A program made the translations under genes and the position numbers. Below, piece after piece: positions 2,482 through 3,389 of a stretch of 4,170 bases of DNA (its first letter is position 1; every line of letters begins with the position of its first letter). The stretch comes from a virus (Duplodnaviria > Heunggongvirae > Uroviricota > Caudoviricetes): the IMG/VR virus record IMGVR_UViG_2695420613_000016; one strand, written 5' to 3'. A model generated the notes under the pieces. The model was not told the DNA's origin. It searched no databases and was given only the letters and a program-made list of their open reading frames with translations.

Positions 2482-2769
2482 TCAGATAGAGAAGGGAAAT
2501 TGTCGCCGAGAATGTGTCACGCTTACAATCTCAATGCTTGAAGCAGCTACTCTGTACAGGATTATGTAGTTAGGGTGGGTCACGATCTCTCTCAATCCAG
2601 AAACCCGTTCGCTTGGTGGATATAAGTACGGATGCTCAGATAGAGGTAATACCGATGTTTCAATGCGTATTTTTAGTCTACGTGCTGCCGGTGGGTTCTC
2701 CTTGGCGATGTAAGTTATGATCTGGCGCAAATCATCGCGAGCAGACGGTAGCCATAAAATGGGTAACAT
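2482..2769 (-). CDS. parE: ParE/RelE-family type II toxin (95 aa)
   Basis: ORF track. Shows the ParE pattern (ILWLPSARDDLRQIITYIAKENPPAARRL ... GLREIVTHPNYIILYRV ... IEIVSVTHSRRQFP). Start overlaps the antitoxin stop (minus-strand TAATG at 2771..2767), the classic TA coupling. Confidence 0.85.
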   Translation of the reverse strand: MLPILWLPSARDDLRQIITYIAKENPPAARRLKIRIETSVLPLSEHPYLYPPSERVSGLREIVTHPNYIILYRVAASSIEIVSVTHSRRQFPFSI

Positions 2770-2960
2770 TACTCGCTCTTGTTAGTTACAGCAATTTGAG
2801 CAATAAGATTTTCCATTTCAGCCATTACCTCGTCATGTGGAATTGCGGGGCGAGTGTCTGCAAGGCTTGACGTTACTTTAGTGCGCAACCATTCGTTGTA
2901 ACTGTTTTCTTGTTCGGTAGTTTCGAATTCTGAAACTATCGGAGAAAGGGCTGTACCCAT
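2769..2960 (-). CDS. paaA: Small antitoxin (63 aa) of the ParE module, PaaA-like rather than a canonical ParD
   Basis: ORF track. Immediately upstream of and coupled to the ParE toxin gene; RBS GAGGAG 7 nt before ATG. Size and position fit PaaA of three-component PaaR-PaaA-ParE modules; the family name is recalled, not searched. Confidence 0.65.
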   Translation of the reverse strand: MGTALSPIVSEFETTEQENSYNEWLRTKVTSSLADTRPAIPHDEVMAEMENLIAQIAVTNKSE

Positions 2961-2987
2961 GGCATAACTCCTCTTCTTGTACTGTGG

Positions 2988-3389
2988 TCACGCCCGGCGG
3001 CTTTTTTGTGCCGCCAGCCACCTAGCAATGGTTTCTTCCATTGATTTTTTCTTGTCTTTGATTTCTTGAAGCATTTTTTCTTGGTCTTCCTCAGGAAACG
3101 CACTAAAAGCTTGGAGCAGTTCGCGTTGGCGAGGACCAATTTTCATCGTGTCAGGGGTGAAAATTTGCTCACACTCTTCAGGAGGCAATAAAAACCAATG
3201 CAATGGATGCCCTGAAACCTCAACCAGTTTATCCAAACTTGAGGCTTTAGGTGTAGCCTTACCGCTGACCCATTGTTGAACAGTTTGTTGTGTCACACCA
3301 ATTCTACGGGCAAGCTCAGCCTGGCTCCATCCAGTTTCCTGAAGAAGCTTGCTGATTCTGTACATAGATACTTCTAGGGCGCTCATCAT
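2988..3389 (-). CDS. paaR: CI-like HTH (XRE-family) repressor (133 aa); first gene of the repressor-antitoxin-toxin operon, PaaR-like
   Basis: ORF track. HTH signature WSQAELARRIGVTQQTVQQWVSGKATP. Divergent from a Cro-like gene across an operator-rich region. No Shine-Dalgarno upstream of the ATG. 27-bp gap to the antitoxin gene on the same strand. Confidence 0.75.
   Translation of the reverse strand: MMSALEVSMYRISKLLQETGWSQAELARRIGVTQQTVQQWVSGKATPKASSLDKLVEVSGHPLHWFLLPPEECEQIFTPDTMKIGPRQRELLQAFSAFPEEDQEKMLQEIKDKKKSMEETIARWLAAQKSRRA

Follow-up and report, generated by a model that had tools for sequence, protein, structure and literature searches.

The window, a 4,170 nt stretch of DNA from the IMG/VR virus record IMGVR_UViG_2695420613_000016 that we analysed over its full length, carries three adjoining genes for a repressor, an antitoxin and a toxin, and is 100% identical to chromosomes of Escherichia coli O157:H7. 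Very probably, these genes are the published module in which PaaR1 is the prophage repressor and the toxin-antitoxin (TA) pair is an addiction device that occupies the position of rexAB in phage lambda. The system is already known: as a first-pass annotation of the sequence had anticipated, the window contains a published paralogue of the PaaR-PaaA-ParE module, likely known rather than new. That annotation had placed three open reading frames (ORFs) head to tail on the minus strand, and the ORF list gives exactly the same coordinates:

2988-3389, minus strand: repressor gene (paaR1-type), 133 aa
2769-2960, minus strand: antitoxin gene (paaA1-type), 63 aa
2482-2769, minus strand: toxin gene (parE1-type), 95 aa

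For comparison we used five other E. coli loci containing the TA pair (L002 to L006), all with the same architecture, and genome counts were taken from 5,426 complete E. coli genomes. The 95-aa product matches Pfam PF05016 ParE_toxin (2.9e-17, 63.5 bits, cut-off 23) along profile positions 1-89 of 89 and NCBIfam TIGR02385 with 28.4 bits (cut-off 27.9), and its nearest solved structure is ParE2 of E. coli O157:H7 (PDB 5cw7_B, E 3e-36, 67% identity). Judged by these matches, it is a ParE toxin of the RelE/ParE superfamily and a relative of ParE2 rather than of RelE. Likewise, the only Pfam match of the 63-aa product is PF21217 PaaA2 (5.6e-19, 68.3 bits, cut-off 27); it also matches the PaaA2 structure PDB 3zbe (E 1.4e-20) and is 62% identical to PaaA2, which identifies it by homology as a PaaA antitoxin lacking a DNA-binding domain. 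Protein-family searches had been proposed with the first-pass annotation, and they place toxin and antitoxin in ParE_toxin and PaaA2, far above chance; the lack of any ParE/RelE match for the 95-aa product, which it had named as fatal to its proposal, is not what was found. ParE2 causes SOS induction (PMC8630535). As Hallez 2010 is summarized in PMC4803016 and PMC8630535, PaaA1 and PaaA2 neutralize their cognate ParE and are protease-labile, and according to the summary in PMC4803016 there is no cross-neutralization, either of ParE2 by PaaA1 or of ParE1 by PaaA2.

The 133-aa product matches Pfam HTH_3 (2.3e-12), a helix-turn-helix (HTH) family, and, marginally, Phage_CI_repr (23.4 bits, cut-off 22), and no Peptidase_S24 (autocleavage) domain was found in it with Pfam; PaaR2 likewise has no S24 domain (PMC8630535). 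The repressor would work like CI, but is outside the lambda CI family. Its match to the DicA subfamily model NCBIfam NF007257 reaches 51.5 bits over residues 11-130, under the cut-off of 101, and PaaR1 is therefore not a DicA orthologue; with BLASTP it is 28% identical to DicA from strain K-12 (E 6e-12). It shows the homology to PaaR2 expected of the regulator of this module (BLASTP, 42% over 98 aa, E 1e-20), which is driven by the C-terminal ~45 aa, with the HTH domain being divergent. Among solved structures it retrieved generic HTH matches only, the best one being the 434 repressor (3e-5), and the PDB copy searched held no structure for PaaR2. In the alignment, the C-terminal ~45 aa (ELLQxFSAFPEEDQ…ARWLAAQKxRRA) are kept in all the repressor variants and, distantly, in DicA, while the N-terminal HTH domain belongs to at least four types among the loci compared. 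In one of them, L003 (3456-3956), the repressor is extended to 166 aa, with a different N-domain and an extra linker of ~30 aa, joined to the same C-terminal domain and TA pair; the C-domain plus the TA pair are therefore the constant part of the family. A phage collection searched with the repressor yielded distant CI-like relatives only, with at most 55% identity, and the exact immunity type occurs in no sequenced active phage there.

The genes are tightly packed. The 27-bp gap and the stop-start overlap noticed at first reading were confirmed: the repressor-antitoxin spacer (2961-2987) holds a Shine-Dalgarno sequence, AGAGGAG (2974-2968), 7 nt 5′ of the paaA ATG, and paaA and parE overlap by 1 nt in TAATG, with the TAA at 2771-2769 and the ATG at 2769-2767. 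The scan found neither a terminator nor a consensus promoter on the minus strand between the three genes, and the single terminator on that strand comes after parE, where one had been predicted:

2463-2448, minus strand: candidate intrinsic terminator, hairpin TCCCTCTTTCGAGGGA followed by a run of seven T, 19 nt past the parE stop

This terminator is modest, with a 6-bp stem in a 49-nt stretch that folds at -9.9 kcal/mol (z = -1.86), and the whole terminator scan was at chance level (two found against 1.7 expected). A GC hairpin followed by a T-run is also found after parE in L002, L003, L004 and L005, and the conservation of these features at the same spot in four other loci of unrelated sequence supports a real terminator. 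The order regulator-antitoxin-toxin, on one strand and with tight spacing, is that of a three-component module and is identical in the five other loci. We thus retain the idea of a module 'fused' to the repressor in the sense of an operon fusion, but not of a gene fusion.

The operators on either side of the module tie it to the prophage switch. A palindrome of ~40 bp, ACAATAAAAAACTGT-N9/10-ACAGTTTTT(T/A)ATTGT, occurs at 3426-3464 and 2391-2430. Additionally, a 15-bp unit, ACAR-N7-YTGT, is present five times in the window, with starts at 2391, 2416, 3401, 3426 and 3450, against 0.29 expected and with none of 200 shuffled sequences reaching five; its copies are confined to the left (OL) and right (OR) operator places. 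The presence of OR-like and OL-like operators flanking the module, as the first reading had it, is thus borne out, and repeated operators stand at both OR and OL, as in a lambdoid switch. The operators, and the promoters that we place around them, are:

2391-2405 and 2416-2430: OL-like putative operator pair (ACAR-N7-YTGT motif)
3401-3415, 3426-3440 and 3450-3464: OR-like tripartite putative operator, with site starts 25 and 24 bp apart
2416-2411, minus strand: putative PL -35, a perfect TTGACA between the two OL sites, by analogy with PL933P (PMC8630535)
3401-3396, minus strand: putative PRM-like -10, TAAAAT, followed by 6 nt and by the paaR ATG at 3389
3440-3469, plus strand: tentative PR-like promoter, TTGATT-N18-TAGGCT, that would drive ydaS-ydaT; L005 has TTGACT-N18-TAAACT there
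3747-3764: YdaT operator OM, TTGATT-N6-AATCAA, at the ydaS/ydaT junction in a PRE-like region

The site at 3401-3415 overlaps the PRM-like -10 and would be OR3-like, that at 3426-3440 abuts a weak PRM -35 and would be OR2-like, and that at 3450-3464, in the spacer and -10 of the candidate PR, would be OR1-like. The PR-like assignment itself is only weakly suggested by the sequence. The YdaT operator exactly matches the motif TTGATT-N6-AATCAA defined by Prolic-Kalinsek et al. (PMC9986795), for which the chance expectation is 0.04, and since it has been kept exactly, a PRE-like route into the operon probably once existed. A scan for consensus promoters retrieved a single one, on the plus strand inside parE, which we dismissed as a chance occurrence (one found against 2.2 expected).

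Upstream of paaR the minus strand reads …ACCTGTAAAAT-TGAATA-ATG, without a Shine-Dalgarno sequence. The same -10/N6/ATG geometry is seen in L005, of the paaR2 type (GATAAT-TACCAC-ATG); in L002, TAAAAT-GAATGC is followed by an in-frame ATG that precedes the annotated start by 9 bases, and the arrangement in L003 is TAGAAT-N7-ATG. The mRNA for paaR2 was experimentally found to be leaderless (PMC8630535), and we infer from the shared geometry and from the lack of a Shine-Dalgarno sequence that the paaR mRNA of the window is leaderless as well. The repressor start is ambiguous (3365-3389), with adjacent ATGs at 3389 and 3386 and a third one at 3365, which some submitters have used to annotate a 125-aa 'putative DicA'; the -10/N6/ATG geometry favours the first ATG (3389) and a leaderless mRNA.

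Operators and repressors change together. Each of four repressor N-domain types has its own operators, and the number of 9-mers shared between OR and OL is 19 (the window's type), 7, 2 and 7 within immunity types, against 0-2 between types. This co-variation, which we observed directly, is as expected if PaaR is the immunity repressor that acts at both operators.

The closest characterized system is paaR2-paaA2-parE2 (RAE2) with ydaS-ydaT, on the cryptic prophage CP-933P/Sp12 of E. coli O157:H7 (Hallez 2010), the source of the Sterckx structures 3zbe and 5cw7. There, Jurenas et al. (2021; PMC8630535) found PaaR2 to be a functional CI, in the cI/dicA position, that represses PR, PL and PRM, with YdaS and YdaT being the analogues of Cro and CII, respectively; PaaR2 and YdaS bind OR as well as OL/PL, which lies on the far side of the TA genes; switching is bistable, and an unstable plasmid that carries the locus is stabilized by addiction, with post-segregational killing. 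According to PMC4803016, which cites Hallez 2010, a single transcript that starts at a promoter upstream of paaR covers the three genes. The window shares with RAE2 the gene order and strand logic, with ydfA…dicB to the left and ydaS-ydaT and replication genes to the right, the leaderless -10/N6/ATG geometry, operators at OR and OL, a terminator after parE, the YdaT operator, and the repressor C-terminal domain. Conversely, the two are heteroimmune: their PaaR N-domains are unrelated in sequence, and the operators are of the type ACAR-N7-YTGT in the window versus GTTTAGTAA-type repeats in RAE2; additionally, ydaT is interrupted by an insertion sequence (IS) in the window. Identity between the window and L005 is uneven: 67% for ParE, 62% for PaaA and 91% for YdaT, against 37% for PaaR overall and 23% for YdaS, which thus differs from one immunity type to another.

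As in lambda, a repressor gene is followed by two accessory genes in one leftward transcript, with OL on one side and, on the other, a tripartite OR whose sites are spaced by 24-25 bp; a leaderless mRNA is expected for the repressor, and cro-like and cII-like genes are divergent. The differences with lambda are that the TA cargo has no sequence homology to RexA or RexB, that the 133-aa repressor lacks the S24 autocleavage domain, and that CII is replaced by the unrelated, POU-fold YdaT. The gene order, the operators on both sides and a published paper stating outright that the TA pair replaces rexAB agree in putting the pair in the lambda rexAB slot, where the first-pass annotation had it. With the DicA-DicC switch and dicB operon of the cryptic prophage Qin of K-12, the window shares a repressor that resembles DicA along its whole length and the leftward ydfA-ydfB-…-DicF-dicB-ydfD-like operon, with a ydfA leader ~89% identical; in Qin, however, dicA is followed directly by ydfA, after a 166-bp gap and without a TA pair; by its sequence, this dicA-ydfA junction is the 'empty site' for TA insertion. 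With classical parDE systems (RK2, Caulobacter, Vibrio) the module shares the ParE fold and an antitoxin gene just upstream, with overlapping stop and start codons; here, however, the antitoxin is PaaA and not ParD, without a ribbon-helix-helix DNA-binding domain, and transcription is controlled by a separate protein, which is also the repressor of the prophage.

The window most likely corresponds to paaR1-paaA1-parE1, the copy on CP-933M/Sp4. Two places match the TA pair in O157 genomes, E. coli O157:H7 is said to carry two paralogous paaR-paaA-parE operons in the account of Hallez 2010 given by PMC4803016, and a homologue of paaR2-paaA2-parE2 lies on CP-933M (PMC8630535). The ParE of L005 is 100% identical to the crystallized ParE2 and its PaaR starts with MQKKE, the N-terminus determined by sequencing of PaaR2 (PMC8630535), and L005 is therefore of the CP-933P type; this leaves, by elimination, the other paralogue for the window.

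The PaaR1-type immunity DNA is present in 510 of the 5,426 genomes, 509 of which contain the full OL-TA-repressor-OR block, so the PaaR1 type lacks the TA pair in one of the 510 at most. No case of this repressor without the TA pair was seen: below the full-block matches, coverage drops to 14%, corresponding to the ydfA leader only. The PaaR2 type was found in 633 genomes. Compared to the window, the repressor gene, OR and ydaS from L004 and L006 are 93-100% identical in nucleotide sequence, whereas parE (~2469-2710) is only 73-80% identical (85-86% in amino acids). The TA pair is therefore a recombination unit of its own, and the toxin gene was evidently exchanged, as far as these alignments tell, independently of the immunity cassette. 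In L006, from strain Z1323CEC0014, paaA is frameshifted (3288-3480) and the adjoining parE is apparently intact; the genome of this strain has a second match to the TA pair, which might supply the antitoxin in trans.

Joining these data with those from the sister locus, we propose that PaaR1 would act as the CI/DicA-like repressor of the prophage by binding to the 15-bp ACAR-N7-YTGT operators, three in OR and two in OL. This binding would shut off the rightward operon of ydaS (cro-like), ydaT (cII-like) and replication genes as well as the leftward ydfA…DicF-dicB operon, and would also control the repressor's own PRM-like promoter. From this promoter, a leaderless paaR1-paaA1-parE1 mRNA would extend to the hairpin at 2463-2448, such that the TA pair, in the position of rexAB, would be expressed whenever the repressor is. 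PaaA1, without a DNA-binding domain, would only neutralize ParE1, a toxin with the ParE fold that probably damages DNA or topoisomerase function and induces SOS. With a protease-labile antitoxin, loss of the region would kill the cell, and the pair would thus be an addiction device stabilizing the immunity region and the prophage. For the window copy, the promoter positions, the operator occupancy and the toxin target in this scheme are inferred. The idea that the repressor doubles as regulator of the toxin module gains support from the operators on both sides and from the sister locus, in which PaaR2 is a CI-like repressor in one operon with the TA genes (PMC8630535, PMC4803016). Of the two functions initially offered, addiction is favoured by the experiments on the sister locus, while abortive infection found no support.

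Several observations weigh against this proposal. A consensus scan reported no PRM, PR or PL, with candidate promoters having weak -35 boxes or spacers of 18-19 nt; promoter positions were assigned by analogy and the window copy is known from sequence alone; the terminator is short; and ydaT is cut by an IS in the window's strain, leaving the switch partly broken. The combination of a frameshifted paaA and an intact parE in L006 implies that a cell may sometimes survive the toxin although its cognate antitoxin is lacking in cis. Jurenas et al. detected no activity of ParE2, whichever expression state the sister locus was in, and addiction was shown on plasmids, not for loss of the prophage (PMC8630535). 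Likewise, the label paaR1-paaA1-parE1 and the assignment to CP-933M derive from secondary sources and elimination, not from Hallez 2010 itself.

Defence against phages is a role of many type II TA systems, and the pair could be chiefly a Rex-like defence, transcribed from the lysogenic promoter and releasing ParE1 upon infection by another phage, which would lead to abortive infection or exclusion, with addiction being secondary. Although the position and the transcript logic are those of lambda rexAB (PMC9986795), we regard this as unlikely: among the PADLOC defence models none matches ParE or PaaA and the repressor has generic HTH matches only, the literature searched contains no anti-phage phenotype for PaaA-ParE, and post-segregational killing is the one phenotype demonstrated for the sister locus (PMC8630535). 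The lack of a DNA-binding domain in PaaA, together with early descriptions of a tripartite TA system (PMC3141249, PMC4803016), would also fit a self-contained three-component TA system whose PaaR is the DNA-binding part of a 'split antitoxin' and not the prophage repressor, with an incidental location in a prophage. We give hardly any credence to this possibility, since the same operators are also found at OL, which lies past the terminator of the TA genes and precedes the ydfA-DicF-dicB operon; PaaR occupies the place of dicA/cI and resembles DicA from end to end; a change in its N-domain goes along with changes in OR, OL and the cro-like gene, the pattern of lambdoid immunity cassettes; and PaaR2 was shown by experiment to repress PR and PL (PMC8630535).

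It is also very improbable that the module is a decaying remnant without present function. The prophage is cryptic, ydaT is interrupted in the window's strain and paaA is frameshifted in one relative, all of which would agree with decay, but the three ORFs are unbroken, each with an end-to-end profile match, and the operators are intact too; the block, always linked to the window's immunity type, is at least 99% identical in more than 400 genomes; and the paralogue is demonstrably active (PMC8630535). The reading of PaaR1 as prophage repressor with an addiction device in the rexAB position is thus the one that we keep.

The DNA around the module was annotated as well. The window is part of a prophage adjoining yccA in strain OK1, between int/exo and O/P-like genes, with the left order int, exo, DUF1482 gene, dicB, 129-aa ORF, ydfB, ydfA and the three-gene module, and, to the right, divergent ydaS/ydaT-like genes and replication genes; no tRNA was found at the prophage attachment site adjoining yccA. 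The flanking features are:

2049-2204, minus strand: ydfA, first gene of the PL-side operon (profile search, annotation)
1919-2047, minus strand: ydfB, PL-side operon
1518-1907, minus strand: 129-aa ORF, PL-side operon
758-809, minus strand: DicF small RNA, upstream of dicB (Rfam RF00039, 76.9 bits, gathering score 48)
384-572, minus strand: dicB, PL-side operon
196-387, minus strand: DUF1482 gene, PL-side operon
3498-3770, plus strand: ydaS-type gene, divergent from paaR (Pfam YdaS_toxin, 8e-10), Cro analogue according to PMC8630535
3754-4043, plus strand: ydaT, CII analogue (Pfam YdaT_toxin)

The gene order and the DicF match identify the left arm as a Qin-type ydfA…DicF-dicB cell-division-inhibition operon. 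On the right arm, ydaT is cut after Ser97 by an IS3-family element (IS629/IS1203) that starts at 4044, with the terminal repeat TGAACCGCCCCGG…, and its ORF runs 12 junk codons into the IS; it is annotated as a pseudogene split by IS1203, and other O157 strains match the window only up to 4043. The cut lies at the same hinge as the engineered truncation YdaT1-96, which is monomeric and has lost DNA binding (PMC9986795), which makes it probable that the window's strain has lost the function of the CII-like arm of its switch.

Other sequences in the left arm deserve mention. The leader between OL and ydfA (2205-2380, ~175 bp) is ~88-97% conserved in 3,575 of the 5,426 genomes and is nowhere annotated; its transcribed minus strand opens with a C-rich, G-poor tract, CACCAACCACCCACCCCGCCCCACA (~2379-2355), that resembles a Rho-utilization site. 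We rejected this leader as a structured RNA, with no Rfam match and z = +0.48. A weak, sub-threshold match to STnc100 is found at 595-744 on the minus strand. A small plus-strand ORF (1146-1331), annotated as hypothetical, lies amid the minus-strand genes of the PL operon, with the 129-aa ORF on one side and DicF on the other, and has CPAC…CPEH motifs, suggestive of a zinc-binding protein.

The module from the window has little discovery value, since the regulation of its sister copy was dissected in 2021-2023, including the analogy with rexAB; the locus was reportedly named and tested by Hallez in 2010. Its value is comparative, as a natural heteroimmune variant with clean 15-bp putative operators that could help to define how PaaR-type repressors read DNA. 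We also advance, as a speculation that is more doubtful than probable, that PaaA-ParE is a mobile cassette acting as a 'guard' of lambdoid immunity regions, perhaps with Rex-like exclusion as a further role, and that it travels with the conserved C-domain of DicA-family repressors. The cassette would be retained through immunity swaps because recombinants losing the TA pair die, and TA alleles would diversify independently of the repressor, escaping cross-neutralization. The association of four repressor N-domain/operator sets with the same C-domain and TA pair, the near absence of PaaR1-type regions without TA genes and the divergence of parE beside a nearly identical repressor, OR and ydaS are compatible with this idea, without proving it. 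The mosaic pattern seen in E. coli bears on the published, and so far hypothetical, proposal of a TA pair that shields the immunity region from recombination.

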